Notes under the pieces: model-generated | Told to the model about the DNA's origin: nothing | The model's database searches: none | The model's input: the letters and a program-made list of their open reading frames with translations, nothing else | Part shown: positions 35,903 through 59,224 of the stretch, piece by piece | Numbering within the stretch: position 1 is the first letter of the stretch | How the letters are laid out: each line of letters begins with the position of its first letter | Assembly (NCBI GenBank): GCA_963832165.1 | Contig: CAWHTE010000007.1 | Location: forward strand, 64,001 to 128,000 | Reading direction: 5' to 3' | DNA from: an uncultured delta proteobacterium | GTDB taxonomy: Bacteria; Myxococcota_A; UBA9160; SMWR01 | Length of the DNA stretch: 64,000 nucleotides | Translations under genes and position numbers: made by a program

Positions 35903-35911
35903 GGTTTCCTC

Positions 35912-37357: not shown

Positions 37358-37399
37358 GATCGATTCACCTGGGGGAGTAGGGGGTAGGCGAATAGGAAA

Positions 37400-37473
37400 A
37401 TATTGATTATCTTTACGATAGTCAATATACGCAAACGGATTAATTTTAGTTTCCTCAGTAAATTATCAGGAAA
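37400..37473. promoter_or_regulatory. AT-rich divergent promoter with inverted repeats (candidate TetR operators)
   Basis: ATATTGATTATC-N5-GATAGTCAATAT (37400-37428, one mismatch) and TTTCCT-N12-AGGAAA (37450-37473), between WS/DGAT and TetR. Confidence 0.7.
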
Positions 37474-37601
37474 TCTAGCGACCCCCGGGGTATGGCGGAT
37501 CGTCCCCGGGCTTTCTACGGATACGCCCGGGATTGTTCTTGCGAACCCGCCGCGTCAGCGAGAAAATCCCTGTTACGGGTTGGAGAGGTTGGATATCCCC
37601 A

Positions 37602-38243
37602 ATGAAGAAGAAGAATTCGAATCTCGAGGCCGCGCGGTCGCGGATGTATCACGACCTGATCTTCGAGTGCGCCGAGCGCGTATTCGCGGAGAAGGGCTTC
37701 GACGAGAGCACGATGCAGGACGTGGCCTCCGAGGCCGGCATCTCGCTCAAGACGCTCTACGCCACGTTCCCGGGCAAGAACGAGATCTGGACCGAGATCC
37801 AGGCCGTGCGCGGGCTGGCCTTCCTCGAGCGCGTGCGCGGCAGCGACGGCGAAGCCTCCGCGATCGAGAAGCTCGAGGCCGGGCTGCGCGCTTTCGTGAC
37901 CTTCCTGCTCGAGCACGACGCCTATCGGCGGATCCTGCTGCGCGAAGGGCACGCCTGGGGGCTCGATCCCAATACCGAGAACACCCGCGAGCACTGGCGC
38001 GCCGGCACGGGCTACGTGGCCGCGATCGTGCGCCAGGGAATCGAGGAAGGCGTGTTCCACAAGGGCGACCCCGAGCTGCTCGCAGCGTCCGTGACCGCCG
38101 TGATGCAGGTCCAGCTCGGAGGCCGCTTGTTCGCTTCCGCGAATCAACCCGACGCGGAGGAGATCGTGAGCGGTACGCTCGAGCTCCTGCGCCGGATGCT
38201 ATGCGTGAACCCGGAGCCGACCCAGGCGCGCCGGGTGGCGTGA
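37602..38243 (+). CDS. TetR/AcrR family transcriptional regulator
   Basis: AERVFAEKGFDESTMQDVASEAGISLKTLYATFPGK HTH. Confidence 0.93.
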   Translation: MKKKNSNLEAARSRMYHDLIFECAERVFAEKGFDESTMQDVASEAGISLKTLYATFPGKNEIWTEIQAVRGLAFLERVRGSDGEASAIEKLEAGLRAFVTFLLEHDAYRRILLREGHAWGLDPNTENTREHWRAGTGYVAAIVRQGIEEGVFHKGDPELLAASVTAVMQVQLGGRLFASANQPDAEEIVSGTLELLRRMLCVNPEPTQARRVA

Positions 38244-39056: not shown

Positions 39057-39857
39057 TCAGCCGACGCGCGAGCTCTGTCCGCCGTCGACGGGCAGCATCA
39101 CGCCCGTGATGAAGCGCGCCTCGTCGGAGGCGAGAAAGACCGCGGCCCAGGCCACGTCCCAGGCCGTGCCCATGTGCCCGCCGAGCGGTACCGCGGCGTG
39201 GCGCTGGGCGACGAGCTTTTCCTTCGCGATGCCGAGCTCCTGCGAGAGGCCCTCGATCGCCATGGGCGTCTCCATGAGACCGGGCATGATCACGTTCGCG
39301 CGGATCCCGTACTTCGCATTGCCGACCGCGAGCGATTGCGTGTAGGCGTTGATGCCCGCCTTCGAGGTCTTGTAGGCGACCGCGGGCGTGGCGCAGATCG
39401 CCGCGATCGACGACACGTTCGTGATCGCCCCGCCCTTCTGCTCGCGCATCACGGGCAGCACGTGCTTGCACGGAAACACCACGCTCTTGAGGTTCACGGC
39501 GAGGATGCGGTCCCACGCCTCTTCGTTCACGTGCGATGGGCTCGCGTCGCCGCCGCCGATTCCGACGTTGTTGTGCAGCACGTCGATCCGGCCGTGGCGC
39601 TTCACGCACGTGGCGACGAGCGCCGCGCAATCGGCCTCGAGGGTGGCGTCGGCGCACGCGGCTTCGGCCTCGCCGCCCTCGGCGCGGATCATCGCGACGG
39701 TCTCTTCGGCGGAGTCGAGCCGCCGATCGACGGCGATCACGCGCGCGCCCTCGCGCGCGAACAGCACCGCGGTGGCGCGGCCGTTTCCGATCGTGTCGCC
39801 GGGCGTCTGCCCGGCGCCCACCACGATCGCGACCTTGCCCGCGAGGCGCGCGCTCAC
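39057..39857 (-). CDS. SDR family oxidoreductase
   Basis: GAGQTPGDTIGNGRA, LHNNVG, YKTSK, LPVDGG. Confidence 0.9.
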   Translation of the reverse strand: MSARLAGKVAIVVGAGQTPGDTIGNGRATAVLFAREGARVIAVDRRLDSAEETVAMIRAEGGEAEAACADATLEADCAALVATCVKRHGRIDVLHNNVGIGGGDASPSHVNEEAWDRILAVNLKSVVFPCKHVLPVMREQKGGAITNVSSIAAICATPAVAYKTSKAGINAYTQSLAVGNAKYGIRANVIMPGLMETPMAIEGLSQELGIAKEKLVAQRHAAVPLGGHMGTAWDVAWAAVFLASDEARFITGVMLPVDGGQSSRVG

Positions 39858-40414
39858 GGACGCGGCAGCGGCGCGAGGCCGGGCTCCGGCTGGACGCCGA
39901 AGCTGTTCAGGGCCATCGACACGAGATTGTATTGGCCGACCGTGAACACGAGATCCATGAGCTGCTGCGTGGAGAGCGAGCTCGCGAGCTCCGTCCACGT
40001 GGTATCCGAGATGAACGCGTCGTCGTGCAGCTCATCAGTGGCGCGCAGCAGCGCGCGCTCGAGCGTGCTCCAGCCGATGGCGGCAGCGCCCTTCGGAATG
40101 CGCGCGATCTCCTCGTCGGACAGGCCCACCGCCTTCGCGATCGCGACGTGCTGACCCCACTCGTAGCCCGCACGGCACAGCCAGCCGATGCGCAGGATCA
40201 CGAGCTCGCGCTCGCGCGCGGGCAGCGTCGATTTGGCGAGCACGTGGTTGCCGAACACGAGCCAGCGCTTCAAGAGGCCCGGGTGGTTCGCGAGCGTGCG
40301 GAAGATGTTGAGGATCGAGCCCTCGCCGACCGGGCCCTGGCCGACGCGCTGGCGCGTCTCCGGGTCCATCTCGTCGTCGGAAAGCGGCGCGACGCGCGGT
40401 TTATCGAGTCTCAC
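39854..40414 (-). CDS. Carboxymuconolactone decarboxylase / AhpD-like family protein
   Basis: NIFRTLANHP, RERELVILR, YEWGQH, TVGQY. Confidence 0.85.
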   Translation of the reverse strand: MRLDKPRVAPLSDDEMDPETRQRVGQGPVGEGSILNIFRTLANHPGLLKRWLVFGNHVLAKSTLPARERELVILRIGWLCRAGYEWGQHVAIAKAVGLSDEEIARIPKGAAAIGWSTLERALLRATDELHDDAFISDTTWTELASSLSTQQLMDLVFTVGQYNLVSMALNSFGVQPEPGLAPLPRP

Positions 40415-40441
40415 GAGTTTCCCTCCCGCGGGCCATGGTAC

Positions 40442-41566
40442 TCACACCCGCGTCCTGAGCACGCTCGGGTCGAAGCGGAACAGCCGAGCCGCCGTGCCCG
40501 CGACGATCTGCGCCGCGTCGTCGACCGGGGTGTGCGCGAACAGCTCGGAGACGATCTTGCGCGAGTGGGGAAAGGTGCCTTCGGCGTGCGGAAAATCGGA
40601 GCCCCACAAGAGCGGCGCCGCGCCCGTGAGCGGGAGGTTGTGGACCGCGACGGGATCGAACTGGAACGTCCCGTGGATCTGTCGCCTCATGTAGTGGCTG
40701 GGCTTCTCGGGCAGGATCGGCTTCACCCATCCCTCGTACTGCTGGAACGCCTCGTAGTAGTAGTCGACCGTGCACATCGCCCACGACAGCCAGCCCGCGT
40801 TCGTCTCGACGAACACGAAGTGGAGTCCGGGGTGATCGGCGAGCACGCCCGAGGTGGCGAGCATCGCGGCTGCGCGCGGCGCCATCGACTGCGTCGAGAG
40901 CAGATTCGTCACGGCAGCGCCGGGGCCGCGGTAGAACAACATGTCGTGCCCGCTGCCCTGGTGCATCACGACCGGAAGACCGATCTCCTCGATCGCACTC
41001 CAGAGCGGCTGCCAGCCGCGGTGGTTGTACTCGGGCGTGCCCACGAGCGGCAGCATGGCCGCAGCCAGCCCGAGGTCGGCGATGCGCGAGACCTCCGCGA
41101 TCGCGGCGTCGACGCTCCAGGTCGGGATCATGCCCGCGCAGCGAAAGCGCGGAGAGCGCGACGCGAGCCGATCTGCGATCCAGTCGTTGTAGATCCGGCA
41201 GCAGGCCTCGCCCGTGCGCGCGTCCGCGATGTTCCACGCGTACAGCCCCGCGCTCGGGTAGACGCACTCGCCCGAGATCCCGTCGCGGCGCATCGCGGCG
41301 AAGCGGCGATCCGGGTCGGCCGTGAGCACACGCAGCGCATCGAGGTCGGAGACGCCCGCGGCGGCTGCGGCTTCGGTGATCTCGCGCGTGTGCGCCGTGT
41401 CCTCGATGCCGATCCGCTTTGCGAACTGGGCCGCCGAGGCGTGCTGAGGACCCAGCTCGGGCGGCAGGTGCTCGCGCATCGCGGGGGAGAGCTCGGCGTG
41501 CCAGAGCGTGCTGGGCTCCTCCACGTGACTGTCTGCCGAGATCAGCGGAAGGCTCTGCAGGTCCAT
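40442..41566 (-). CDS. Amidohydrolase_2 family protein
   Basis: ISADSHVEEP, YNDW, VMHQG, WGSDFPHAEGTFP. Confidence 0.9.
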   Translation of the reverse strand: MDLQSLPLISADSHVEEPSTLWHAELSPAMREHLPPELGPQHASAAQFAKRIGIEDTAHTREITEAAAAAGVSDLDALRVLTADPDRRFAAMRRDGISGECVYPSAGLYAWNIADARTGEACCRIYNDWIADRLASRSPRFRCAGMIPTWSVDAAIAEVSRIADLGLAAAMLPLVGTPEYNHRGWQPLWSAIEEIGLPVVMHQGSGHDMLFYRGPGAAVTNLLSTQSMAPRAAAMLATSGVLADHPGLHFVFVETNAGWLSWAMCTVDYYYEAFQQYEGWVKPILPEKPSHYMRRQIHGTFQFDPVAVHNLPLTGAAPLLWGSDFPHAEGTFPHSRKIVSELFAHTPVDDAAQIVAGTAARLFRFDPSVLRTRV

Positions 41567-41580
41567 GGTGTCGTGACGCG

Positions 41581-42846
41581 TCAGGCGATCGGGCCGTGTA
41601 CCGATTCGTATTCCCTGCGGTAGTCGGCCCGAGACCGCGTGCGCAGATCGACGTCCCGCGCGCGCGCGCGCAGCGCGCCCACCGTGGCGGCTTCGCGGGG
41701 CACGTGCCGGAACGGATCGAAGCGCAGCCAGCGCAGCGCATTCTCGAACCCGATCTTCGCGATCTCGGAATCGCTGCACTTCGCGAGGGTGAAGTGCTCG
41801 AACAGCTCCTCGGGCGAGCCCGGAAAGCTGCAGTCCGAATGCGGGTAGTCGACCTCGTAGGCGATGTTGTCGATGCCGATCCGGTCGCGCAGCAGCAGGC
41901 CCGACGGATCGCAGATGAAGCAGGCGAGGAAGTGTCGGTGGAACTTCTCGGTCGGCGTGAGACCGCCGAGATCCGATTGCATCCATCGCTGGAGGTGGAA
42001 CTGGCGCTCCATCCGGTCGAGGAAGCCCGGGATCCACGACGTGCCGCCCTCGGAGAGCGCGATCTTGACGTCCGGGTATTTCACGAGCGACTTGCACCAG
42101 AGGAAGTTCGCCGCGCACGCGAGCGAGTTCCAGCACGGCAGCGTGCTCGCGACCTCGATCGGCGTCCGGGACTCGACGGGCATGGTGATGTTGCTCGACG
42201 CGATGTGCACCGCGATCACGACGCCTTCTTCCTGACACGCGGCAAAGAACGGATCCCAGGCGCCGCTGTGGATGCTCGGATGGCCGAAGGTCTCGGGCGC
42301 CTCCGAGAACGCGATCGCAGTGGCGCCCTTGCGCGCCACGCGCCGGACTTCCTGTGCCGAGAGCTCCGGCGACCACAGCGCGCACAGCGGCAGCGGGATG
42401 AAGCGGCCCGGATGGCTGCCGGCCCACTCGTCGATGTGCCAGTCGTTGTAGGCCTGGAGACATGCCAACGCGAGCTCGCGGTCCGCACAGCTCGCGAAGA
42501 AGCTCCCGCTCATGCCCGCGAACGACGGAAAGCACATCGATGCGAGGATCCCGTTCGCGTCCATGTCGCGGACGCGCGCCGCGCTGTCGTAACAGCCCGG
42601 GCGCATCTCGGCGAGCGTCGAGGGATCGTATCCCCACTCCTCGTTCGGCAGCGTCACGACCGCACAGATGAACGGCGTGGCCGCGGCGCCTCCCTCCCAG
42701 ACCCAGGTCTGCGCGCGGCGCTTCGCGTCGTAGACGAAGCGCGGCGCGCGGTCGGCCCACTTCTTCGGGACGTGATTCGCGAATACACTCGGCGGCTCGA
42801 CGATGTGATCGTCGACGCTCACGAGAATCATGTCGTCCAGACGCAT
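41581..42846 (-). CDS. Amidohydrolase_2 family protein
   Basis: VSVDDHIVEP, MRPGCYD, AYNDWHIDEW, SEGG, EVDYPHSD. Confidence 0.9.
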   Translation of the reverse strand: MRLDDMILVSVDDHIVEPPSVFANHVPKKWADRAPRFVYDAKRRAQTWVWEGGAAATPFICAVVTLPNEEWGYDPSTLAEMRPGCYDSAARVRDMDANGILASMCFPSFAGMSGSFFASCADRELALACLQAYNDWHIDEWAGSHPGRFIPLPLCALWSPELSAQEVRRVARKGATAIAFSEAPETFGHPSIHSGAWDPFFAACQEEGVVIAVHIASSNITMPVESRTPIEVASTLPCWNSLACAANFLWCKSLVKYPDVKIALSEGGTSWIPGFLDRMERQFHLQRWMQSDLGGLTPTEKFHRHFLACFICDPSGLLLRDRIGIDNIAYEVDYPHSDCSFPGSPEELFEHFTLAKCSDSEIAKIGFENALRWLRFDPFRHVPREAATVGALRARARDVDLRTRSRADYRREYESVHGPIA

Positions 42847-42866
42847 GGTCTGGCAGGAGCCTACCA

Positions 42867-43730
42867 CTACCGACGGTTGGGGTCCTCGACTCCGTAGATC
42901 CGCGCCATCTGCTGCGATACGAGCGCGGTGACCGGCAGCGAGATCTCCGCGTCGCGCGCGAGTGCCAGCACACCCGCGAGATCCTTCTCGGCGATGATCA
43001 TGTGGTTGCGCATGAGCTTCTGCACGGGCTCCGACGTGCGGACCGCCTCGGGCAGCTTGACCCCGCCGAGGTAGTTGACCATCAGCTGCGTGAGCTGGCC
43101 GTTCGCCTGCCCGGCCTCCTCGAGCACCGACTGCGGCAGCCCGATCGCCTTCGCGAGCTGGAACGACTCGAACGCTGCGGCCCACTGGAGATAGGTGATC
43201 AGGTTGATGCAGAACTTGAGCTTCGCGCCGTCGCCGAGTGCGCCGGCGTGGATGATCTTCACCGAATTGCACTCGAACACGGGCCGCACCTTCTCGAGCG
43301 CGTCCGCGTCGCCGCCGACGATGTAGGTGATCTGCTTTGCCTTGGCGCGCTCCGCGCCGCCCGTGACGCACGCGTCGAGCACGGCCACGCCGAGCGGTTT
43401 CGCGGCCTCGGCGATCTCGATCGCGGTGGCGGGCAGGATCGTGCTGTGGATCGCGATCACGGCGCCCGGCTTCGCACCCGCGAGCACGCCGTCGTCGCCA
43501 TACACCACCGCGCGCACGTGTTCGTCGGCCGGTACGCAGATCCCGATCACGTCCGATCGCTCACCGACCTCGCGCGGCGACGACGCGGCGCGCGCTCCGC
43601 CTGCCACGAGCTCCTGCACGGGCTCCGGCGCGAGGTCGTAGACCGTGGTCTCGAATCCCGACGGCGCGAGATGCGCCGCGATCGGCTTGCCTTGGTTCCC
43701 CAACCCGATGAATCCGACGCGAAGCGACAT
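42867..43730 (-). CDS. NAD(P)-dependent oxidoreductase, 3-hydroxyisobutyrate dehydrogenase family (Rv0770-like)
   Basis: GFIGLGNQG, IHSTI, DACVTGG, GAKLKFCIN, EKDL. Confidence 0.88.
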   Translation of the reverse strand: MSLRVGFIGLGNQGKPIAAHLAPSGFETTVYDLAPEPVQELVAGGARAASSPREVGERSDVIGICVPADEHVRAVVYGDDGVLAGAKPGAVIAIHSTILPATAIEIAEAAKPLGVAVLDACVTGGAERAKAKQITYIVGGDADALEKVRPVFECNSVKIIHAGALGDGAKLKFCINLITYLQWAAAFESFQLAKAIGLPQSVLEEAGQANGQLTQLMVNYLGGVKLPEAVRTSEPVQKLMRNHMIIAEKDLAGVLALARDAEISLPVTALVSQQMARIYGVEDPNRR

Positions 43731-43764
43731 CGCACACCTCCGAGCGATTCCACGGTATCACAGC

Positions 43765-43790
43765 TTACATTGCATCCGCTATGTAAATAG
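43765..43790. promoter_or_regulatory. Palindromic operator-like motif, copy 1
   Basis: TTACATTGCATCCGCTATGTAAATAG in a 66-bp divergent intergenic gap; 23/26 identical to 49980-50005. Confidence 0.75.
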
Positions 43791-43796
43791 TCTACC

Positions 43797-44576
43797 GTGC
43801 TGCGCGTGCAATCCCCCCGCACAGCGATCGTCACGGGCGCCTCGTCGGGCATCGGCGCCGCGACCGCCGTGGAGCTCGGCCGTGGCGGATGGCGCGTGGC
43901 GATCGGCGCGCGGCGCGTCGATCGGCTCGAGGGCGTGGCCAAGCAGGTCGAGGCCGAAGGCGGTGTGGCACTCGCGAAGCGCCTCGACGTGACCGATCCC
44001 GCATCGGTCGAGGAGTTCTGCACCGCCGTCGAGTCCGCGCTGGGCCCGATCGATCTGCTCGTGAACAACGCGGGGCAGAACATGTCGGCGCTGATCGCGG
44101 AGGCCACGACCGACCAGCTGCGCCTCGACGTCGAGGTGAACCTGCTCGGAGCGATGTACATGACCCGGCGCGTCGTACCGGGCATGATCGAGCGCCGCGT
44201 CGGCGACGTGATCTTCGTGGGCTCCGACGCCGCAATGCGGCCGCGAACGTTCCAGGGCGCCTACAACGCCGCGAAGGCGGGCCTCGAGGCGTTCGCGCGC
44301 GTGCTTGCGATGGAGACCGAGGGCACCGGCGTGCGCTCGATCCTCGTGCGCGTCGGCCCGACCTGGAGCGAGTTCAACAGCCAGATGCCGCACGCGCGCC
44401 TCCCCGAGATCCTGCAGAGCTGGAAGCACTGGGGAATTCTGCGCAGCCTGCACGCGATGCCGTCGGAGAGCGCCGCGCGCGCGATCGTGCGCGCCGTCTC
44501 TGCTCCCGTAGAGGAGTCGTACACCACCGTCATCGAGGTGCAGCCCGGCGGCCGCAGCAAGGAGTACGCGAAGTGA
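43797..44576 (+). CDS. SDR family oxidoreductase (Rv0765c-like)
   Basis: TGASSGIGAATA, DVIFVGSD, GAYNAAKAG, EGTGVRS..VRVGPT, W.HWG tail recalled as characteristic of the mycobacterial cyp51-locus SDR. Confidence 0.88.
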   Translation: MLRVQSPRTAIVTGASSGIGAATAVELGRGGWRVAIGARRVDRLEGVAKQVEAEGGVALAKRLDVTDPASVEEFCTAVESALGPIDLLVNNAGQNMSALIAEATTDQLRLDVEVNLLGAMYMTRRVVPGMIERRVGDVIFVGSDAAMRPRTFQGAYNAAKAGLEAFARVLAMETEGTGVRSILVRVGPTWSEFNSQMPHARLPEILQSWKHWGILRSLHAMPSESAARAIVRAVSAPVEESYTTVIEVQPGGRSKEYAK

Positions 44577-45328
44577 AGCTCGACGGAATCGAGGGCAAGG
44601 TCGCGATCGTCACGGGAGCGGGCGGCGGGATCGGCGAGGCGTACGCGACGGGGCTCGCAGCGCAAGGCGCCCGGGTAGTCGTCGCCGAGATCAAGAAGGA
44701 GAACGGCGAGCGCGTCGCCGAGGAGATCCGCCAGACCGGCGCCGAGGCGATCTTCGTCGAGGTCGACGTCGGGTCTCCCGCATCGACGCTCGCGCTGGCC
44801 GATCGCACCGTGGAGGCGTTCGGCGGCATCGACTTCCTCGTCAACAACGCCGCGATCTTCGGCGACATGAAGCTCGACTCGCTCCTGCGCGTGGACTGGG
44901 ACTACTACCAGCACTTCATGAACGTCAACATGAACGGCGCGCTCCTGTGCACGCGCGCGTGCTTCCGCTCGATGCGGGAGCGCGGTGGCGGCGCGATCGT
45001 GAATCAGTCCTCGACTGCATCGTGGATGGGCGCGGGCTACTACAGCCTCGCCAAGAACGGCATCAACGGGCTCACCCAGTGCCTCGCGCGCGAGCTCGGC
45101 CCGCAGAAGATCCGCGTGAACGCGATTGCGCCGGGTCCCACGGAGACGAGCGCGCTGCGCAGCACCGCGGGCGATTTCGCGAAGCAGCTCGTCGCGCAGC
45201 TGCCGCTCGCGCGCCTCGGACAGCCCGGAGACATGGTCGACGCGTGTCTCTTCCTGCTCTCCGACGCCGCGTCGTGGATCACGGGCCAGATCGTGAACGT
45301 CGACGGCGGTCAGATCTCCCGCCTCTAG
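44573..45328 (+). CDS. SDR family oxidoreductase (Rv0769-like)
   Basis: GGIDFLVNNAAIFGDMKLDSLL.V..DYY..FM.VN, NQSSTASW, SWITGQIVNVDGGQ. Confidence 0.9.
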   Translation: MKLDGIEGKVAIVTGAGGGIGEAYATGLAAQGARVVVAEIKKENGERVAEEIRQTGAEAIFVEVDVGSPASTLALADRTVEAFGGIDFLVNNAAIFGDMKLDSLLRVDWDYYQHFMNVNMNGALLCTRACFRSMRERGGGAIVNQSSTASWMGAGYYSLAKNGINGLTQCLARELGPQKIRVNAIAPGPTETSALRSTAGDFAKQLVAQLPLARLGQPGDMVDACLFLLSDAASWITGQIVNVDGGQISRL

Positions 45329-45340
45329 AAAGGAAATGCC

Positions 45341-46819
45341 ATGGCACTCGCTCCGCTCGCACCCGAAACCCGCAACCTGATCGACGGCAAGCTCGCTACT
45401 GCCAGCAACGGCAACACGTTCGAGAACGTGAGCCCCTCCACCGAAGAGGTGCTCGGCACCGTCGCCGACGGCACCAAGGACGACATGCTGCGCGCGGTGA
45501 CCGCGGCGCGGCGCGCGTTCGACGAGACGAGCTGGTCGACCGACCACGCGTTCCGCGCGAAGTGCGTAAAGCAGCTCTACGAAGGGCTCAAGGCCGAGAA
45601 GGAGCAGTTCCGCTCGATCGTCGTGCACGAAGCGGGCGCGCCCGTGACGCTCACGAGCTACATGCACATCGACGATCCGATCGAGATGATGGCCTACTGG
45701 GCCGACAAGGCGGGCTCGTACGTGTACGAGCGGCGCATGAAGGACATCCCGTTCTTCGGGCGTGCGAATGGGCGCATCCTGCGGCGCGAGGCGACCGGCG
45801 TGGTCGGCGCGATCACGCCCTGGAACGTGCCGCTCTACCTGAACATCGCGAAGCTGGGTCCTGCGCTCGCGTCGGGCTGCACGATCGTGCTCAAGCCCGC
45901 GCCCGACACGCCGTGGTCGGCCACTCACATCGGCAAGGTGATCGCCGAGCACACCGAGATCCCGCCCGGCGTCGTCAACATCGTGGCGTCGTCCGACCAC
46001 CTCACGGGCGAGATCCTGTCGTCGGATCCGCGCATCGATCTCGTCACCTTCACTGGCTCGACCGCGACCGGGCGGCGCATCATGGAATGCGCATCGCCCA
46101 CGCTCAAGAAGGTGTTCCTCGAGCTCGGCGGCAAGTCGGCCAACATCGTGCTCGACGACGCCGACTTCGCCGCGGTGCTGCCGATGGGCGCAATGACCTG
46201 CGTGCACGGCGGCCAGGGCTGCGCGATCACCACACGTCTCCTGCTCCCGCGCTCGCGCTACGACGAAGGCCTCGCGATCCTCAAGGCCGCGTTCGAGAAC
46301 TGGAACTACGGCGACCCGACCAACCCGGCCAACCTCCAGGGGCCGCAGGTCTCGAAGCGCCAGCAGCAGCGCGTGCTCGGCTACCTCGAGAAGGGCAGGA
46401 AGGACGGTGCGCGCGTGCTGGTCGGAGGCGGCGCACCCAAGCACTTGTCGAAGGGCTTCTACGTCGAGCCGACCCTTTTCGTGGATGTCGACCCCGATAG
46501 TGCTATCGCGCAAGAAGAGATCTTCGGTCCGGTGCTCTGCGTGATTCCGTACGAGGACGACGACGACGCGGTGCGGATCGCCAACAACTCCGTGTACGGC
46601 CTGTCGGGCGCGGTCAGCTCGGGCAGCGAGGAGCGCGCGCTCGCGGTGGCGCGGCGCATCCGCACCGGCACGATCTCCGTGAACGGCGGGATGTGGTTCA
46701 ACGTCGACTCGCCGTTCGGCGGCTACAAGCAGAGCGGGCTCGGGCGCGAGAACGGCGAGATGGGGTTCGAGGAGTATCTCGAGACCAAGGTGATCGGCTG
46801 CTCGCCGCAGGGCTCGTGA
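45341..46819 (+). CDS. Aldehyde dehydrogenase (AldA/Rv0768-like)
   Basis: ITPWN, FTGSTATG, LELGGKS, HGGQGCAITTR, EEIFGPV, PFGGYKQSG. Confidence 0.95.
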   Translation: MALAPLAPETRNLIDGKLATASNGNTFENVSPSTEEVLGTVADGTKDDMLRAVTAARRAFDETSWSTDHAFRAKCVKQLYEGLKAEKEQFRSIVVHEAGAPVTLTSYMHIDDPIEMMAYWADKAGSYVYERRMKDIPFFGRANGRILRREATGVVGAITPWNVPLYLNIAKLGPALASGCTIVLKPAPDTPWSATHIGKVIAEHTEIPPGVVNIVASSDHLTGEILSSDPRIDLVTFTGSTATGRRIMECASPTLKKVFLELGGKSANIVLDDADFAAVLPMGAMTCVHGGQGCAITTRLLLPRSRYDEGLAILKAAFENWNYGDPTNPANLQGPQVSKRQQQRVLGYLEKGRKDGARVLVGGGAPKHLSKGFYVEPTLFVDVDPDSAIAQEEIFGPVLCVIPYEDDDDAVRIANNSVYGLSGAVSSGSEERALAVARRIRTGTISVNGGMWFNVDSPFGGYKQSGLGRENGEMGFEEYLETKVIGCSPQGS

Positions 46820-50034: not shown

Positions 50035-51130
50035 ATGGCGAACCCCCAGGAGAGACCGCTGCGCGTGATCCAATGGTCGACCGGGAATGCGGGCAAGAAC
50101 GCGGTGCGCGGCATCGTGCGCCACCCCGACCTCGAGCTCGTGGGACTGCACGCGCACTCGAAGGAGAAGCAGGGCGTCGATGCCGCCGAGCTGTGCGGCC
50201 TGCCGAGCCCGACCGGCGTGCGCGCGACGAACGACGTCGACGCGCTGCTCGCGCTCGACGCCGACTGCGTCTGCTACATGGCGCAGGGCGAGACGCGGAT
50301 CCGCGAGACGATCGACGATCTCACGCGGATTCTGCGATCGGGCAAGAACGTCGTGAACACGTCGCTCGTGTCGCTCTGCTACCCCGTCGTTCTCTCCGAA
50401 GCTGCGCGACGCGCTGCAGAAGGCCTGCGAAGAGGGCGGCACCACCTTCTTCACCTCGGGCTTCGATCCGGGCTGGTCCGGCGACGTGATTCCGCTCGCA
50501 CTCGCGTCGACCTGCGAGCGCGTGGACTCGATCCGCGTCACCGAGTGCATGGACTACTCGACCTACGAAGACCCGGGGTTCACGGGCGTGTTCTTCGGCT
50601 ACGGACGTCCGCTCGACTACGACGCTCCCCTGCTGCGGCCCGGCATGCTCAAGGGCGGCTGGGGCTGCATGGTGCTCATGCTCGCCGATGCGCTCGGCGT
50701 CTCGCTCGACGAGATCCGCGAAGAGCACGAGCGGCTGCCCGCGCCCGAGACGTTCGAGACGCGCATGGGCAAGATCGAGAAAGGCACCTGCGCGGGCGTG
50801 CGCTTCGAGGTGCAGGGGATCGTCGATGGCAAGCCCGCGCTCGTGGCCGCGCACGTGAATCGGCTGCGCCAGGACATCGGGCCCGACTGGGAGCGCCTCT
50901 CGGGCAAGCGCCACTCGGGTTACAAGATCGCCGTGAAGGGCTCGCCGTCGCTCTACTGCGAGATCGAGCCGGTGGGCGAAGACGGCGACCACAACACGGC
51001 GGGGATCCTCGGCACCGCGATGCGCGTGGTGAACGCGATTCCGGCGGTGTGCGCGCATGCGCCCGGCGTCGTCTCGACGCTCGACCTCCCGATCTTCTCG
51101 GCGCGCGGAATCGGGGGCCGCGTGCGCTGA
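50035..51130 (+). CDS. DapB-like / NAD(P)H-dependent amine dehydrogenase family oxidoreductase, frameshift near 50384
   Basis: RVIQWSTGNAG, KQGVDAAELCG, GKNVV, then SGFDPG, TAMRVVNAIPAVCAHAPG..TLDLP in the next frame (extra C in a CCCC run). Confidence 0.85.
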
Positions 51131-51505: not shown

Positions 51506-52849
51506 ATGCCCGCCCAGCCCGCTTCCCCGCCCCGCCCCACCCCCGTGAGCGGCGCCGTGCCCGGCCTCGGCCACACCGCCGAGTTCCTCGCCAACCCGGC
51601 GCTGTTCATGCTCCGCGCGTGGCGCGAGTGCGGTGAGCTCGCGGAGTTCGACCTCGGCGGCGTCCGCAACATCCTGATGGTCGGACCCGAGGCACACGAA
51701 GCGGTGTACCGCGCGCCCGAGGATCAGCTCTCCGCGGCCGAGCCCTACAAGTACATGGTCCCGGTGTTCGGCGAGGGGATCCAGTACGGCGCGCCGCTCG
51801 AGATCGAGCGACAACAGGTGAAGTTCCTGACCCACGCGCTGCGCCCCGACAAGATGAAGGGCTATGCGCGCGTGATCGCGCAGGAAGTGGAGGCCTGGAT
51901 CGCGAGCTGGGGCGACGAGGGCGAGCGCGACTTCTACGACGAGTTCAAGGAGCTCGTGCTGCGCACCTCCACGCACTGCCTGATGGGATCCGAGTTCCGC
52001 GCCAAGCTCACCGAGGAGTTCGGTGCGCTGTTCCACGACCTCGAGCAGGCGATCTCTCCGCAGGCGGTGCTCGACGCACACTCGCCCGACGAGGCATTCG
52101 CGAAGCGCGATCGCGCACGTGCGCGCCTGCAGGAGCTCTTGATGGAGTCGGTGCGCGCACGTCGACGCGTGGGTGGCGACCATCCCGACATGCTCGAGGT
52201 GTTCATGAACGCGCGCTACATCGACGGCAGCGCGCTCCCCGACGAGCTGATCCCGGGAATGGTGGTGTGGATCATGTTCGCGGGCTTCCACACGAGCTCG
52301 AACACGGCGAGCTGGACGGCCGTCGAGCTCGCGCGCAATCCGCAGTGGGTTCCTGCGATCGCGCACGAGATCGACACGGTGTACCGGCCCGGGGGCGATC
52401 TCTCGATCGCGGGGCTGCGCGAGCTGCCTGCGCTCGATCGATTCATCGCCGAGGTGCTGCGGCTGCACCCGCCGCTCGTGACGCTGATGCGCACGGTGAT
52501 GCGCGACTTCGAGTACAAGGGGAATGTGTTCCCGGCCGGCACCGTGCTGGCGATCTCGCCCTACGTCTCGCACCGCGTGCCCGAGGTGTTCCCGGATCCC
52601 GAGCGCTTCGACCCCACGCGCCCGGTTCCGAAGAGCGTGTTCGGCGCGATTCCGTTCGGCGGCGGTCGGCGCAAATGCGTCGGCAACGCGTTCGCGCTGC
52701 TCCAGGTGCAGTCGATCTTCTGTGCGCTGCTCGCGCGCTACCAGTTCGAGCCGGTCGACCCGCCCGAGAGCTACCGTGACGTAATGCCTTCGCTGATCCT
52801 GCGGCCGAGCGAGCCGTGCCTGCTGCGCTATCGCCGACGGAGTGCATGA
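51506..52849 (+). CDS. cyp51: Cytochrome P450, CYP51 (sterol 14-alpha-demethylase)-like
   Basis: B-C loop YKYMVPVFGEGIQYGAP, I-helix MFAGFHTSS with the CYP51-type His-Thr pair, EVLRLHPPL, heme motif PFGGGRRKCVG. Confidence 0.85.
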   Translation: MPAQPASPPRPTPVSGAVPGLGHTAEFLANPALFMLRAWRECGELAEFDLGGVRNILMVGPEAHEAVYRAPEDQLSAAEPYKYMVPVFGEGIQYGAPLEIERQQVKFLTHALRPDKMKGYARVIAQEVEAWIASWGDEGERDFYDEFKELVLRTSTHCLMGSEFRAKLTEEFGALFHDLEQAISPQAVLDAHSPDEAFAKRDRARARLQELLMESVRARRRVGGDHPDMLEVFMNARYIDGSALPDELIPGMVVWIMFAGFHTSSNTASWTAVELARNPQWVPAIAHEIDTVYRPGGDLSIAGLRELPALDRFIAEVLRLHPPLVTLMRTVMRDFEYKGNVFPAGTVLAISPYVSHRVPEVFPDPERFDPTRPVPKSVFGAIPFGGGRRKCVGNAFALLQVQSIFCALLARYQFEPVDPPESYRDVMPSLILRPSEPCLLRYRRRSA

Positions 52850-53058
52850 CCATGCGAGTCGTCGTCGACCTCGACCTGTGTCAGGGACACGGCGTCTGCC
52901 AGAGCGAGGCGCCCGAGATCTTCCGCGTCGTCGATCGCCCGGGCGAGTACGCGCGCGTGGAGGTGATCCTCGAGCGGCCGCCCGAAGAGCTGCGCGTGCC
53001 GGCACAAGCCGCTGCGCGCTACTGCCCGAGCCGCGTGATCACGATCGTCGAGGACTGA
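52846..53058 (+). CDS. Ferredoxin (3Fe-4S, P450-associated)
   Basis: DLDLCQGHGVC...APEIF...CP; ATGA overlap with the P450 stop. Confidence 0.92.
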   Translation: MTMRVVVDLDLCQGHGVCQSEAPEIFRVVDRPGEYARVEVILERPPEELRVPAQAAARYCPSRVITIVED

Positions 53059-53065
53059 GGCGGCG

Positions 53066-53905
53066 TTGGCGCACGGCGAATCCGCGTGGTTCTCGCACAA
53101 TCCCGACAAGGCTTGGGCAGAGAAGCTCTTCCTGACCTTCATCCCCGTGTTCGTGATCTACAACGCGGTGATGCAGCAGATGGGCTGGCTCGACGCGGGC
53201 ACCTTCTGGCACGTGGTCCAGAACGCAGCGATGTGGCTGCCCTACTGCGTGCTGTTGCCCGCGTGGCTGCGGCGGAACAGCGATGTGCCGTGGACCAGCA
53301 GCTACTGGTTCAAGCTGAACGTGTACATGGCAGTCTGGGTGTTCTTCGCCACCTACTACCACACCGAGTACTTCTTCGAGCTGCTCGGCCTTCGCTACCG
53401 CTTCCCCGCCGTGCACGCCTACTTCGATTCGGCGCTGATCGGACCCGACGAGGCGACCGCCGCAGCTGAGTGGAAGAAGGTGCCCGTGGGCATGTATCTC
53501 AACTCGGTGGCGTTCTTCCTCGTCTACCACAGCGCCGCGGTCGTGTGCATGCGGCGCGTGCGGCGCTTCACGCTTCCCTGGAGCGCGGCGGCGCGACGCG
53601 CGGGCTGGGTCGCGATCGTCACCGCGACGGCGCTCTTCTTCGCGTGGGCGGAGACCTACCTCTACATCACCGACGATGCCGCCGCGAACGTCTGGTACGT
53701 CGATGTGAACGCGATGCTGCGCTTCGGCTCGTTCTTCTACGCGATGTACTTCATCGTGAGCTTCCCGAACGTATTCCGGCTCGACGAGGATCCGGGCGCG
53801 CCGCGTTGGACCCTCTCGCGCACGGTGATCGAGGCCTGCTTCGTCGCGATCGTGAGCATGACGCTGCTCGACTTCTGGGCGAGCTGGATCGGCCCGATCG
53901 CATGA
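53066..53905 (+). CDS. Cycloeucalenol cycloisomerase (cyclopropylsterol isomerase, CPI1)-like membrane protein
   Basis: 279-aa polytopic protein. WFSHNPDKAWAEKLFL, YWFKLN, TEYFFELLG..Y.FP, FYAMYFIVSFP..FRLDE and LLDFW...IGPI match recalled plant CPI1 motifs colinearly. Confidence 0.82.
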   Translation: MAHGESAWFSHNPDKAWAEKLFLTFIPVFVIYNAVMQQMGWLDAGTFWHVVQNAAMWLPYCVLLPAWLRRNSDVPWTSSYWFKLNVYMAVWVFFATYYHTEYFFELLGLRYRFPAVHAYFDSALIGPDEATAAAEWKKVPVGMYLNSVAFFLVYHSAAVVCMRRVRRFTLPWSAAARRAGWVAIVTATALFFAWAETYLYITDDAAANVWYVDVNAMLRFGSFFYAMYFIVSFPNVFRLDEDPGAPRWTLSRTVIEACFVAIVSMTLLDFWASWIGPIA

Positions 53906-54924
53906 GGGTGCTCGTGACCGGCGCAACCGGGATGATCGGCTGCCACGCGGCGGCGGCGCTCGCCCGCGCGGGACACGAGGTGCGCGCGCTCGTGCGCGAT
54001 CCGCACAAGCTCGACCGCGTGATGGCTCCGTTCGGACTCGCGGGCGCGATCGAAGCGCGCTCGGGAGACGTCACCGACCCGGCGTCGGTTGGCGAGGCGC
54101 TGCGCGGCTGCGACGCTCTGATCCACAGCGCAGGACTGTTCTCGCACGCGCTCTCCGACGCGGCGCTGCTCCAGGCCGTGAACATGCGCGGCACCGAGAC
54201 CGTGCTGAGCGCGGGCTGCAAGGCGGGCCTCGCGCGGATCGTGTTCGTGTCGAGCGCGCTCGCGCTGTTTCCGCCGCCGGGTCCACTGATGCGCGCGTCC
54301 GACGCGGTGGCGAGCCCGGCGACGATGTACTCGGCGTGCAAGGCGGAGGCCGAGCGCTGCGCGCGCGCTCTCCAGGACGGCGGAGCACCGATCGTCACCG
54401 TCTATCCATTCTCGGTGCTCGGCCCGAACGATCCGACCGTCGGCAGCGGCCCGGGCGTGCTCGCGATGGGTCTGCGCGCGGGACACGTCCTCGTTACCGA
54501 GGGCGGGCTCGCCCACACCGACGTACGAGACCTCGCCGACCTGTTCGCCGCGCTCGTCGCCGCCGCCGACCCGCCCCCGCGCGTGATGGCGACCGCGGCG
54601 TTCGTCGCGCACGAGCGCTACTTCGAGCTGCTCGCGCAGCTGACCGGCCGCAGCGACCTCGTGGCCCAGCGCATCCCCGGCCGCGTGCTGCGCGCGCTCG
54701 GCCGCGCCGGAGATCTCGCGCAGCGCTGGCTCGGCCGCTCCCCGCAGCTCACCGGGGAGGCCGCCCAGATCCTCACGCGCAGCGTCCCGGTCGACGATCG
54801 CGAGGCACGCGCGCTGCTCGGCCGCGCGCCGACGGCGATCGAGGACTCACTGCGCGACACGATCGCCTGGATGGCCGCGACCGGCGTGATCCCGCCGCGC
54901 TGCGCCGGGCGCCTTTCCGTCTAG
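53902..54924 (+). CDS. NAD-dependent epimerase/dehydratase (extended SDR, 3-beta-HSD/DFR-like)
   Basis: VLVTGATGMIG, HSAG, VSS, YSACK; ATGA overlap with the CPI-like stop. Confidence 0.85.
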   Translation: MRVLVTGATGMIGCHAAAALARAGHEVRALVRDPHKLDRVMAPFGLAGAIEARSGDVTDPASVGEALRGCDALIHSAGLFSHALSDAALLQAVNMRGTETVLSAGCKAGLARIVFVSSALALFPPPGPLMRASDAVASPATMYSACKAEAERCARALQDGGAPIVTVYPFSVLGPNDPTVGSGPGVLAMGLRAGHVLVTEGGLAHTDVRDLADLFAALVAAADPPPRVMATAAFVAHERYFELLAQLTGRSDLVAQRIPGRVLRALGRAGDLAQRWLGRSPQLTGEAAQILTRSVPVDDREARALLGRAPTAIEDSLRDTIAWMAATGVIPPRCAGRLSV

Positions 54925-55042: not shown

Positions 55043-56662
55043 ATGCACTTCCCCGATCTCTCCGATCCGCGCGACCGCACGCTGCATGGCGTGCTGCGCC
55101 GCCAGGCCGAGGCGAACCCCAACGCTACCTACCTGCACGTCGACGACGAGCGGATCTCCTACGCGGAGGTGCTCGCGCGCTCGAACGCGTGGGCTGCGGC
55201 GCTGCGCGAGCTCGGCGTCGCGCGCGGCGATTCGGTCGCGTTCCTGCTCAAGAGCAGCCCCGATTTCGTGTACGCGACCTTCGGCTGCCTCCAGCTCGGT
55301 GCGATCTGGATTCCCGTGAACGTCGACTATCGCGGCGCATGGCTGCGCGCGACGCTCGAGGACGCCGCCGCGCGCGTGCTCGTCGTCGACGCAGAGCTGG
55401 TGCCGCGCGTGGCGGAGGTCGCCACGGGCCTGCTCTTCGAGCGCGCGATCGTGCTCGGCGACGCGAGCGCGCGCAGCGCGCTGCCGTGGCCCGCGATCTC
55501 CGCCTCGGACATCGCGAGACGGGTCGGCAAGGTCGCGGCGCCGGAAGATCCCGGCACGGGCCCCGGCGACACCGCGTGCGTGCTCTGGACGTCGGGCACC
55601 ACGGGGCGCTCGAAGGGCGTGATGCAGAGCCACAACGTGTGGATCCGCGCCGCGCTCTCGGGGGCGCAGAACTCCGGGATTCGCGACGGAGACGTGCTCT
55701 ACGGCTGTCTGCCCATGTACAACTCGGCGGCCTGGGTGGCGCACGTGTACCGCGCGCTCGTGGCCGGGATTCCGGTCGGACTCGATCCGGCCTTCTCCGT
55801 GCAGACGTTCTGGGACCGCATCCGACACTACGGCGCGACGCAGATCTTCACGCTCGGCACCATGCACATCTACCTGTGGCAGGCGCCCGAACGCGCCGAC
55901 GACGCGCAGAACCCGGTGCGCCACGCAGGCTGCATTCCGATGCCCGATCAGCTCATCGACCCGTTCAAGAAGCGCTTCGGGATCGAGTCGCTCGACCAGG
56001 GCTACGGCCAGAGCGAGGTGCTCGGCTTGCTGCACCGCTACGACACGCTGCCGAGGAAGCCCGGCTCGCTCGGCCAGCCGCTACCGGGTCTCGAAGTGGC
56101 CCTGCTCGACGACGACGATCGGACCGTCGCGCCCGGTGGGGTGGGCGAGTTCTGCGTTCGGCCGACCGAGCCGAACACGATCTTCTCCGGCTATTGGAAC
56201 AACCCAGAGGCGACGGTCGCTGCGTGGCGCAACCTCTGGTACCACACGGGCGATCTCGGCCGGCGCGACGAGGATGGCGACTGGTTCTTCGTCGACCGCA
56301 AGAAGGACTACATCCGCCACAAGGGCCGCAACATGTCCTCGTTCGAGGTGGAGCGGACGTTCGCGGCGCACCCTGCCGTGTCGGAGGCTGCGGCGATCGG
56401 CATTCCCGACCCGAACCTCCCGAGCGAGGCCGAGCTCATGGTGTTCGTGAAGCTCAAGGAAGGAGCAAGCGTGACGCCGGCCGAGCTCGCGCGCTTCGTG
56501 AACGACAATGCACCCTACTTCTTCGTACCGCGCTATCTCGAGATCGCCGACGATCTGCCGCACACGCCGACCGGCCGCGTGCAGAAGTTCGCGCTGCGCG
56601 AGCGCGGCGTCGGGCCTGCGACGTGGGATCGCGTGGCCGCCGGATTCGAAGTGACGCGATGA
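55043..56662 (+). CDS. ATP-dependent acyl-CoA ligase (CaiC/crotonobetaine-CoA ligase-like)
   Basis: WTSGTTGRSKG, GYGQSE, WRNLWYHTGDLG, VDRKKDYIR, TPTGRVQK. Confidence 0.9.
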   Translation: MHFPDLSDPRDRTLHGVLRRQAEANPNATYLHVDDERISYAEVLARSNAWAAALRELGVARGDSVAFLLKSSPDFVYATFGCLQLGAIWIPVNVDYRGAWLRATLEDAAARVLVVDAELVPRVAEVATGLLFERAIVLGDASARSALPWPAISASDIARRVGKVAAPEDPGTGPGDTACVLWTSGTTGRSKGVMQSHNVWIRAALSGAQNSGIRDGDVLYGCLPMYNSAAWVAHVYRALVAGIPVGLDPAFSVQTFWDRIRHYGATQIFTLGTMHIYLWQAPERADDAQNPVRHAGCIPMPDQLIDPFKKRFGIESLDQGYGQSEVLGLLHRYDTLPRKPGSLGQPLPGLEVALLDDDDRTVAPGGVGEFCVRPTEPNTIFSGYWNNPEATVAAWRNLWYHTGDLGRRDEDGDWFFVDRKKDYIRHKGRNMSSFEVERTFAAHPAVSEAAAIGIPDPNLPSEAELMVFVKLKEGASVTPAELARFVNDNAPYFFVPRYLEIADDLPHTPTGRVQKFALRERGVGPATWDRVAAGFEVTR

Positions 56663-58180: not shown

Positions 58181-59224
58181 TTACAGGAGCTCTTCGGCGA
58201 GCAGCTCGAGCGCTTCCGGCTGACCGGAGCCGACCTGGATCGTGTCGATCCAACGCTTCTTGCCCGCCTCCTTCCAGACCTGCAGGCGATCGCGGATCTG
58301 CTCCTTCGAGCCCACCAGGTGCACGGCGTCGACGAGCTCGTCGGGTACCGCCGCGGCGGCTTCGAACTTCTTTCCATCGAGGAAGAGGTTCTGGATCTTC
58401 ACCGCGGCTTCCTCGTAGCCCAACCGCTTCGCGAGATCGTTGTAGAAGTTCTTGTCGCGCGCGCCCATGCCGCCGATGTAGAGCGCGAGCATGCCCTTCA
58501 CGGGCATGCGCGCCTTCTCGACGTCGTCGCTGATGATCACGCTGACCATCGCGACGACGTTGAAGTTCGCGAGGCTCTTCCCTCCGCCCGCCTTCGCGAA
58601 ACCCTCCTGCAGATAGGGCAGGTACACGGAGTCGAAATTCTCCGGGTCCACCATCATCGGAAATACGCCGTCGGCGACTTCGCCCGCGCAGCGCATGCCG
58701 GCGGGGCTGATCGACGCGGTGTAGATCGGCAGGTTCGGATTGCCGTGCAGGATGCTCTTGAGCGGCTTGCCGTGACCGGTCGTGCCCGGGCCCGTCACCG
58801 GGATGTCGTAGTGCTCGCCGTGGAACTCGACCGGCTTTTCGCGCGCGAGGATCTGGCGCACGATCGCGATGTACTCGCGCGTGCGCGTGAGCGGCTTGCC
58901 ATACGGCACGCCGTGCCAGCCCTCGATGACCTGCGGGCCCGAGGGCCCGAGGCCCAGGATGAAGCGTCCGCCCGAGAGGTGATCGAGCGTCATCGCCGTC
59001 ATGGCCGTCATCGCGGGCGTGCGCGCGGGCATCTGCATGATCGCGGTGCCGCAGCGCAGCTTGGTCGTGTTCGCGAGCACCCACGTCGCCGTCGTGACGG
59101 CGTCGTTGCCGTACGCCTCGGCGGTCCAGGCCGAGTCGAATCCGAGCGACTCGGCGCGCTTCACGAAGTCCAGATTGATGCTCGCCTTGGCCCCGAACGG
59201 CGCCACACCGATTCCGAGTTTCAT
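58181..59224 (-). CDS. LLM class (probably F420-dependent) oxidoreductase, Rv3520c-like family
   Basis: WTAEAYGNDA, MPARTPAMTAMTAMTLDHLSGGRFILGLGPSGPQVIEGWHG, LYIGGMGARDKNFYN. Confidence 0.9.
   Translation of the reverse strand: MKLGIGVAPFGAKASINLDFVKRAESLGFDSAWTAEAYGNDAVTTATWVLANTTKLRCGTAIMQMPARTPAMTAMTAMTLDHLSGGRFILGLGPSGPQVIEGWHGVPYGKPLTRTREYIAIVRQILAREKPVEFHGEHYDIPVTGPGTTGHGKPLKSILHGNPNLPIYTASISPAGMRCAGEVADGVFPMMVDPENFDSVYLPYLQEGFAKAGGGKSLANFNVVAMVSVIISDDVEKARMPVKGMLALYIGGMGARDKNFYNDLAKRLGYEEAAVKIQNLFLDGKKFEAAAAVPDELVDAVHLVGSKEQIRDRLQVWKEAGKKRWIDTIQVGSGQPEALELLAEELL

Follow-up and report, generated by a model that had tools for sequence, protein, structure and literature searches.

In plants, the reaction of cycloeucalenol cycloisomerase (CPI) is the step directly before that of the sterol 14alpha-demethylase CYP51. 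A CPI1 homologue was reported in the myxobacterium Plesiocystis pacifica in 2009 (PMC2817430), and a 2021 study counted the myxobacterial CPI1 among the steroid biosynthesis genes of the producing species (PMC8237579). For its part, CYP51 has been catalogued in more than 1,000 bacteria, including Parahaliea mediterranea, by Lamb et al. (PMC7947880), who proposed that the CYP51 of non-producers was kept from ancestors that made sterols and may have taken on new functions; the term cycloisomerase does not occur in the main text of that paper. Why sterol non-producing bacteria keep a sterol 14-demethylase has been a long-standing question since the CYP51 of Mycobacterium tuberculosis, the physiological role of which is still called unclear in reviews (PMC6469627, PMC7947880). 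Here we describe an operon at positions 51506-54924, all on the forward strand, of a 64-kb stretch of DNA (the window) from an uncultured member of the Myxococcota. The operon combines genes for a CYP51, a ferredoxin, a CPI1-family membrane protein and an extended short-chain dehydrogenase/reductase (SDR).

Since neither an oxidosqualene cyclase (OSC) nor a squalene epoxidase was found in the genome, de novo sterol synthesis is unlikely, and the best reading is that the operon tailors exogenous sterols, not made by the cell itself, a proposal to which we give an even chance.

Organization of the operon

The first gene (51506..52849, +) encodes a 447-amino-acid (aa) P450 of the CYP51 (sterol 14alpha-demethylase) family, with matches to Pfam p450 and to CYP51 entries of the PDB, and the second (52846..53058, +) a 70-aa single-cluster ferredoxin with the motif CXXHXXC...CP (Pfam Fer4_15 and Fer4_13). 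The third gene (53066..53905, +) starts with TTG and encodes a 279-aa polytopic membrane protein, assigned by homology to the CPI1 family (cycloeucalenol cycloisomerase-like), and the fourth (53902..54924, +) encodes a 340-aa extended SDR resembling 3beta-hydroxysteroid dehydrogenase (3beta-HSD) and HpnA (Pfam Epimerase and 3Beta_HSD). When the junctions were read, the ferredoxin start was found to overlap the CYP51 stop in an ATGA at 52846-52849, and the SDR start to overlap the CPI stop in a second ATGA at 53902-53905. The ferredoxin stop is followed, after a spacer of seven bases (53059-65), by the TTG of CPI, and GAGG stands just 5' of this codon. Thus, the four co-oriented genes, ATGA overlaps and 7-bp gap that an earlier note had described from the letters of this DNA were borne out by the open reading frames (ORFs) and the junction sequences.

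The identical four-gene order was present in a metagenome-assembled genome (MAG) of the same genus (L003/L017), the products being 88, 79, 86 and 69% identical for CYP51, ferredoxin, CPI and SDR, respectively. Nei-Gojobori dN/dS values for the same comparison were 0.18 for CYP51, 0.35 for the ferredoxin, 0.21 for CPI and 0.39 for the SDR. Given that the order is kept in the same-genus MAG and that dN/dS ranges from 0.18 to 0.39, all four genes are real and under purifying selection. A promoter and terminator scan gave no signal above chance.

The P450 and its ferredoxin

The P450 scored 203 bits against Pfam p450 (E of 1e-59), and its best matches in the PDB were 7jj1, 6mcw and 6mi0, with an E value of 2e-120 over residues 8-447. 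The next match was M. tuberculosis CYP51 (1e9x; E of 4e-101, full length), followed by about 30 rows of eukaryotic sterol 14-demethylases, so that the top 36 solved-structure matches were all CYP51s or sterol 14-demethylases. The B'-helix motif YKYMVPVFGEGIQYG aligned with YPFMTPIFGEGVVFD of 1e9x, and the helix-I HTS triad, within AGFHTS, aligned with AGHHTS of the same enzyme, the B'-helix/B'C-loop and HTS signatures being taken as given in PMC7947880. The heme Cys motif FGGGRRKCVG was also present. The P450 is therefore a true CYP51 family member, in concordance with the signatures noted previously, and the 14alpha-demethylation of a sterol is its predicted activity.

Three positions of the B' signature are changed in the window enzyme relative to those of M. 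tuberculosis and Methylococcus, V being replaced by Q, F by Y and D by G. Among the CYP51s that accompany the window CPI clade (see below), Tyr or Phe occupied the F105-equivalent B'-helix position in all five loci read, the window and its same-genus counterpart being counted once each. Phe at this position goes with a preference for obtusifoliol (PMC7947880), and the CYP51 of M. tuberculosis, an organism without a cyclase, converts obtusifoliol (PMC6469627). Plant-type substrates would thus fit the window enzyme.

The ferredoxin matched Fer4_15 (3e-10) and Fer4_13 (2e-7), and its sequence reads CQGHGVC...YCP. This CXXHXXC type of motif is shared with the CYP51-linked ferredoxins Rv0763c of M. 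tuberculosis and Fdx10 of Mycobacterium marinum (PMC6237146).

The CPI1-family protein

The 279-aa protein matched no Pfam or NCBIfam family. Its homologues in a set of 5.8 billion proteins carry the JGI name cycloeucalenol cycloisomerase, and an exhaustive HMMER search with the protein yielded 368 representatives at an E value of ≤0.001, 134 at 1e-10 and 19 at 1e-30. A Hondaea protein named cycloeucalenol cycloisomerase aligned with residues 6-273 (E of 2e-31, 36% identity), and other eukaryotic members of the family were found in Palpitomonas (likewise named cycloeucalenol cycloisomerase at source), a chytrid, a filamentous fungus and Syssomonas. In the Atlas, a Streptophyta cluster was named CPI at 0.91. 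An alignment of 21 sequences, eukaryotic members included, ran from end to end and contained 13 invariant columns (E19, L23, P65, G108, Y111, P140, Y154, R163, A193, E196, G221, Y225 and P234) plus 14 near-invariant ones. By full-length homology, then, the 279-aa protein is a member of the CPI1 family, and the end-to-end likeness to CPI1 claimed in the earlier note was confirmed by this alignment with eukaryotic proteins so named.

The AlphaFold model of the protein was an all-helical membrane bundle (pLDDT, 87.9), for which Foldseek returned no relative in the PDB (best E, 0.42). The best match by VIA-align was a mycobacterial Insig homologue (4xu4; Z of 5.9, rmsd of 4.0 Å over 139 residues), at a score below the meaningful level for helical bundles.

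To place the protein in its family, a maximum-likelihood tree was built from 48 CPI sequences, six of them from eukaryotes other than Streptophyta, the group of the characterised Arabidopsis CPI1. The window sequence fell in a clade of 18 rows with a support of 100/100 and a stem of 1.26 changes per site. This clade comprised three Myxococcota families together with the Gammaproteobacteria Parahaliea, Litorivivens and Solimonas, at 58 to 86% identity. Five of the six eukaryotic rows grouped with distant myxobacterial rows from genomes bearing OSC, and Hondaea stood beside the window clade on a long branch, its position being without resolution. Some branches of the tree are long, and the direction of CPI transfer was for this reason left without a conclusion.

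By analogy with its family, the window CPI is inferred to open a cyclopropane ring, and its substrate may differ from that of CPI1, since it belongs to a separate clade on so long a stem.

The extended SDR

The fourth product matched Pfam Epimerase (2e-27) and, over its N-terminal half only, 3Beta_HSD (1e-16, a score of 61 against a domain cut-off of 22). Of the NCBIfam models, HpnA gave the best match, at 128 bits, and SdmB reached 78 bits, both far short of their respective cut-offs (368 and 600). The motif GATGMIG was found at residues 7-13 and the catalytic YxxxK as YSACK; among solved structures, only generic extended SDRs were matched (best, 1e-21). A gene for this SDR directly follows CPI in 10 of the 16 other loci of the clade (L003/L017, L004/L033, L005, L007, L008, L032 and L034-L037).

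Distribution of CPI and of sterol cyclases

The occurrence of CPI was studied in genome collections holding one genome per species. A contig scan gave eight CPI loci, belonging to Litorivivens lipolytica, two Parahaliea species, Solimonas soli, a Spongiibacteraceae and a Nevskiaceae MAG, a MAG labelled 'Deltaproteobacteria' and the same-genus MAG. CPI was present in 7 of 61 close relatives, the host genome included, and in 35 genomes of a phylum-wide sample of 401, so the distribution of its relatives is patchy.

Carriers were then searched with an OSC model. No match was obtained in the five named carriers (0/5), and none over the cut-off in four relatives (0/4), one of which gave a match at the level of hopene cyclases (235 bits). 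Among the phylum carriers, 13 of 31 were matched, corresponding to the six with the most distant CPI plus 7 of the 17 genomes of genus g77. All six genomes with the most distant CPI (30 to 36% identity) contained OSC-like genes, and their scores of 715 to 913 bits indicate that the search works.

In the window CPI clade, by contrast, OSC was found in none of 15 distinct genomes, several of which are 93 to 99% complete or come from cultured isolates. These 15 genomes correspond to 16 OSC-negative rows of the 18 in the clade (L004 and L033 being identical), the other two rows lying outside the OSC test. Thirteen of the 15 were without any cyclase-type match to the OSC model, a model that also catches hopene cyclases, at 155 to 235 bits. 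The clade thus departs from the pattern of the CPI1 family, which occurs in cycloartenol makers.

In genus g77 (loci L039-L055), of the same phylum, 17 of the 23 genomes sampled carried a CPI homologue, which has CYP51 as its immediate neighbour in most loci, and an OSC-like gene (672 to 687 bits) was detected in only 7 of these 17 even though they are 94 to 100% complete; sister species differ in OSC.

A search of sequencing runs found operon-like reads in soil and rhizosphere metagenomes, with small shares (up to 0.12). Contigs of 130 to 350 bases from four metagenome runs were 90 to 99% identical to the operon and covered 19 to 30 of 30 bins, none spanning the operon, and no RNA dataset was among the runs listed as matching it. 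Close relatives seem, on this slight basis, to live in soil and rhizosphere.

Sterol and steroid genes of the host genome

The host MAG comprises 5.5 Mb in 11 contigs and is 89% complete; the YchF protein of the window is 75 to 80% identical to proteins of MAGs labelled Myxococcota. Profile searches of this genome found no OSC and no squalene epoxidase. The absence of both genes from the window, pointed out previously, thus extends to the whole 89%-complete genome. A single triterpene cyclase locus was detected, on a different contig (C4) from the operon (C7), and its product is a squalene-hopene cyclase (474 bits; cut-off, 431) that scored 155 bits with the OSC model (cut-off, 851).

As regards steroid catabolism, no KstD-like gene was found in the host genome, where the best score with NF005882 was 96 bits, compared with 481 to 607 bits in four other carriers. 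A single Rieske/KshA_C protein (94 bits) is encoded, on another contig than the operon. Its locus (contig C1:640181-643762; L011) contains a TetR gene, the 325-aa Rieske/KshA_C oxygenase itself (64 bits with the SdmA model) and an Amidohydro_2 gene, and the oxygenase shares 38% identity with its counterpart in the CPI cluster of Parahaliea. A steroid-catabolic cluster around this gene was considered and rejected: the neighbours were TetR, Amidohydro_2, acyl-CoA ligase, luciferase-like (LLM) and MaoC hydratase genes, with no KstD or Hsa gene.

Gene context of CPI in other genomes

CYP51 directly adjoins CPI in L019 and L020 as well as in most g77 loci, and lies within 5 kb of it in L003, L004, L007 and L008. 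Of the five clade genomes with a non-adjacent arrangement, two (G019 and that of Litorivivens) encode CYP51 elsewhere.

Other neighbours recur. An Rv0768-family aldehyde dehydrogenase (ALDH) is encoded near CPI in the window, Parahaliea and Solimonas, with TIGR04284 scores of 690, 694 and 702 bits, respectively (cut-off, 775), and tblastn with the window protein gave 55 to 56% identity. Homologues of 3-hydroxyisobutyrate dehydrogenase (HIBADH) are encoded directly beside CPI in L019, L033, L034 and L036 and near it in L004, L007 and L008. Classical SDRs, luciferase-like oxidoreductases and TetR regulators were also recurrent neighbours. In Litorivivens lipolytica (L005, 7899-12570), the CPI-SDR pair is flanked by genes for a TetR protein, a histidine kinase with an ethylene-receptor-like N terminus (ETR1_N) and a response regulator.

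In gammaproteobacterial carriers, steroid-catabolic-type genes accompany CPI. The CPI cluster of Parahaliea aestuarii encodes a Rieske/KshA_C oxygenase, an ecdysteroid-kinase-like protein and a KstD-like flavoprotein (585 bits), and Solimonas soli has KshA-like (173 bits) and KstD-like (553 bits) genes at a distance of 7 to 16 kb from CPI. The KstD-like scores all fall short of the curated cut-off of 788. Litorivivens, Parahaliea and Solimonas also have adjacent or near-adjacent KstD-like/KshA_C pairs elsewhere in their genomes. In agreement with this, Halieaceae and Spongiibacteraceae isolates grow on cholesterol (PMC5790920), and the OM60 clade and Hydrocarboniphaga are predicted steroid degraders (PMC4810484).

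Possible function and alternative explanations

Cyclopropyl sterols and 4- or 14-methyl sterols are abundant lipids of plants and algae, and we know of no described bacterial route for their breakdown. The coupling of CPI to CYP51, in a clade never accompanied by a sterol cyclase, speaks for an external origin of the substrates. According to the mechanism that we propose, the substrate would be an exogenous sterol, or a precursor of one, that originates from plants, algae or other microbes and reaches the membrane with its 14alpha-methyl group in place and probably with a 9beta,19-cyclopropane ring as well, examples being cycloeucalenol, cycloartenol and 24-methylenecycloartanol. The CPI-like protein would protonate and open the cyclopropane ring, or catalyse a carbocation isomerisation close to this reaction. 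From the resulting delta-8 sterol, CYP51, with electrons from the adjacent ferredoxin, would remove the 14alpha-methyl group in three oxidations. The SDR, in turn, would interconvert the 3beta-hydroxyl and the 3-ketone. The products would be ordinary tetracyclic sterols, either degraded downstream, as the context in gammaproteobacterial carriers suggests, or used by the cell.

A more general form of this proposal, which we put forward as a tentative possibility, is that a horizontally mobile CPI1 branch, together with CYP51 and a 3beta-HSD-like SDR, constitutes a front-end pathway by which bacteria without a cyclase unblock plant and algal sterol precursors, removing the cyclopropane and the 14-methyl group, for classical steroid degradation or for the membrane. 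If true, it would for the first time assign a physiological role to orphan bacterial CYP51s and would add a new step to the turnover of sterols in the environment, and cultured carriers (Parahaliea, Litorivivens lipolytica and Solimonas soli) are available for testing it. It would also bear on the reading of CPI1 and CYP51 phylogenies in arguments on the bacterial origin of eukaryotic sterol synthesis, and on the bacterial alteration of sterane biomarkers.

Several observations weigh against the tailoring of exogenous sterols. Membership of the CPI family is based on homology, both pairwise and in the alignment, and on names given automatically rather than on a curated Pfam or NCBIfam model, and the likeness to characterised plant CPI1 is indirect, the Arabidopsis enzyme standing outside the comparison. 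The window CPI clade lies, on its long stem, apart from the eukaryotic and the OSC-linked bacterial CPIs, and it has a 7-residue insertion after residue ~125, which may mean a changed substrate. The four-gene form is not universal, since CPI has no SDR gene beside it in six of the other 16 loci of the clade (L006, L009, L010, L018, L031 and L038; in L010 the CPI gene begins at the locus edge, with one side unseen), and at an E value of ≤1e-60 no CYP51 was found in three of the five clade genomes with a non-adjacent arrangement (G351, G190 and G005, the last being Solimonas). No uptake system was identified, and the host genome is incomplete. Finally, a catabolic fate is unsupported in the host, owing to the lack of a KstD-like gene and to a single weak KshA_C protein encoded elsewhere. 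The degradation of scavenged sterols, suggested in the earlier note, therefore finds a basis in the KstD-like and KshA-like genes beside CPI in gammaproteobacterial relatives, but not in the host genome itself.

The strongest rival explanation is that the operon is a relic of ancestral myxobacterial sterol synthesis, left after the loss of OSC and squalene epoxidase and now acting on an endogenous non-sterol lipid, in line with the divergence that Lamb et al. propose for CYP51 in non-producers (PMC7947880). The host belongs to the Myxococcota, a phylum whose ancestor has been inferred to possess CPI1, CYP51 and OSC (PMC8237579); the long stem of the CPI clade and the changed B' residues of CYP51 could mark a new function, and the CYP51-CPI pair persists without OSC in 10 of the 17 g77 genomes. 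However, the same CPI clade occurs in Gammaproteobacteria at 62 to 69% identity, which calls for the horizontal transfer of a working module rather than for vertical relics; its span across Myxococcota and Gammaproteobacteria would fit a selected, transferable module better than a decaying one. Moreover, the gammaproteobacterial copies are located among steroid-catabolic-type genes, the family-invariant polar residues and the sterol-binding motifs of CYP51 are retained, and no candidate for an endogenous substrate is evident. We thus regard a relic as rather unlikely.

A modification of the cell's own hopanoids, or of some other triterpenoid produced by its squalene-hopene cyclase, would agree with the presence of this cyclase in the host and with the fact that the best NCBIfam match of the SDR is the hopanoid-associated HpnA. 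That match, however, is far under its cut-off, the cyclase and the operon lie on different contigs, and most of the clade genomes (13 of 15) lack any cyclase-type match to the OSC model, all of which makes this explanation very unlikely. De novo synthesis via cycloartenol, with cyclase and epoxidase missing from an assembly that is only 89% complete, would be in keeping with a CPI1 otherwise specific to the cycloartenol route (PMC2817430, PMC8237579), but is highly improbable given the absence of OSC from all 15 clade genomes and the lack of a squalene epoxidase in the host. An ERG24-type C-14 reductase (PF01222) was not matched in five genomes either, but this search was run without a positive control and is uninformative.

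With the tailoring of exogenous sterols thus retained as the best reading, its novelty is partial. The earlier note had called the route possibly undescribed; CPI1 in myxobacteria and orphan CYP51s in non-producers have already been published (PMC2817430, PMC8237579, PMC7947880), whereas the CPI clade from cyclase-less genomes, with its gene context, seems not to have been described. The literature yielded no paper on CPI in bacteria without a cyclase, although the supplements of PMC8237579 and PMC7947880 may show such sequences.

Other features of the window

The surroundings of the operon have the catabolic look attributed to them previously, with an acyl-CoA ligase, amidohydrolases, a luciferase-like protein and two further P450s. 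The acyl-CoA ligase gene (55043..56662, +; Pfam AMP-binding, 5e-70) is co-oriented with the operon and starts 118 bp downstream of the SDR; it is a possible fifth operon gene, its membership being uncertain. Its product scored 465 bits with PRK06155 of NCBIfam, under the cut-off of 722, and the other CPI loci contained no counterpart except for a ligase of 25% identity in L006. The two downstream P450s were considered as steroid enzymes and rejected, being generic CYP109/107-like proteins, with a CYP125 ancestor and CYP142 only in the middle of the list of matches and no specific link to steroids. The luciferase-like oxidoreductase encoded at 58181-59224 (-) scored above the cut-off for the F420_Rv3520c subfamily (393 bits; cut-off, 335), in a host that is not expected to be an actinomycete.

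Upstream of the operon, a DAP_DH_C-type oxidoreductase gene (50062..51130, +; Pfam DAP_DH_C, 1e-18 for 50486-51130) is 81% identical to a 363-aa orthologue in L004 and is split over two frames, which is a frameshift or an assembly error. The region 39057-46819 groups genes for a CMD-family protein, SDRs, the HIBADH-like oxidoreductase (42867..43730, -; Pfam NAD_binding_2, 2e-40) and the Rv0768-family ALDH (45341..46819, +), the last two being the conserved neighbours mentioned above; we take this gene set to resemble the CYP51 neighbourhood of M. tuberculosis. Farther upstream, the region 34109-38243 is a neutral-lipid storage module, with a wax-ester synthase/DGAT (TIGR02946, 356 bits), a long-chain acyl-CoA synthetase (PRK08279, 747 bits) and a divergent TetR gene. 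Two ORFs match their models only in part, that of a class-I tRNA synthetase (17157-18482) over the C-terminal half of the Pfam model and that of a PQQ-dehydrogenase (24221-24829) over the last third; both were probably truncated by assembly frameshifts.

Comparison with known systems

Methylococcus capsulatus provides, with its CYP51fx, the closest solved CYP51 (E of 2e-120). In the window, the ferredoxin is a separate gene and not a fusion, and the window SDR and the host Rieske/KshA_C protein score 78 and 64 bits against the Methylococcus SdmB and SdmA models, respectively, both far below the cut-offs of 600. Unlike the host, Methylococcus has OSC and makes its own lanosterol.

To our knowledge, no described bacterial steroid-degradation cluster includes CPI or CYP51. 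The likeness to such clusters lies in the location of CPI within KstD-like/KshA-like clusters in Parahaliea and Solimonas, and in the fact that the carrier families include cholesterol degraders; the host genome, by contrast, lacks KstD.

The CYP51B1-ferredoxin pair of M. tuberculosis (Rv0764c/Rv0763c) is alike in that a soluble CYP51 in a cyclase-less genome is followed by a small CXXHXXC ferredoxin, in the aromatic residue at the F105-equivalent position and in the presence of an Rv0768-family ALDH near the window operon. The window gene set presumably resembles Rv0765c-Rv0771 further. The window operon differs in its translationally coupled CPI and extended SDR and in three positions of the B' motif, and we know of no CPI homologue next to CYP51 in mycobacteria.

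Plant and protist CPI1 (EC 5.5.1.9) and the CPI1 of sterol-producing myxobacteria are like the window protein in length (∼280 aa), in their polytopic nature and in being alignable from end to end, with 13 invariant columns. CPIs of the window family are, in addition, often encoded beside CYP51, the enzyme of the following step. The window clade is nevertheless separate (100/100), with a long stem and an insertion; it is confined to genomes in which OSC was not found (0 of 15), has an extended SDR as its partner and, in Gammaproteobacteria, is set among catabolic-type genes.

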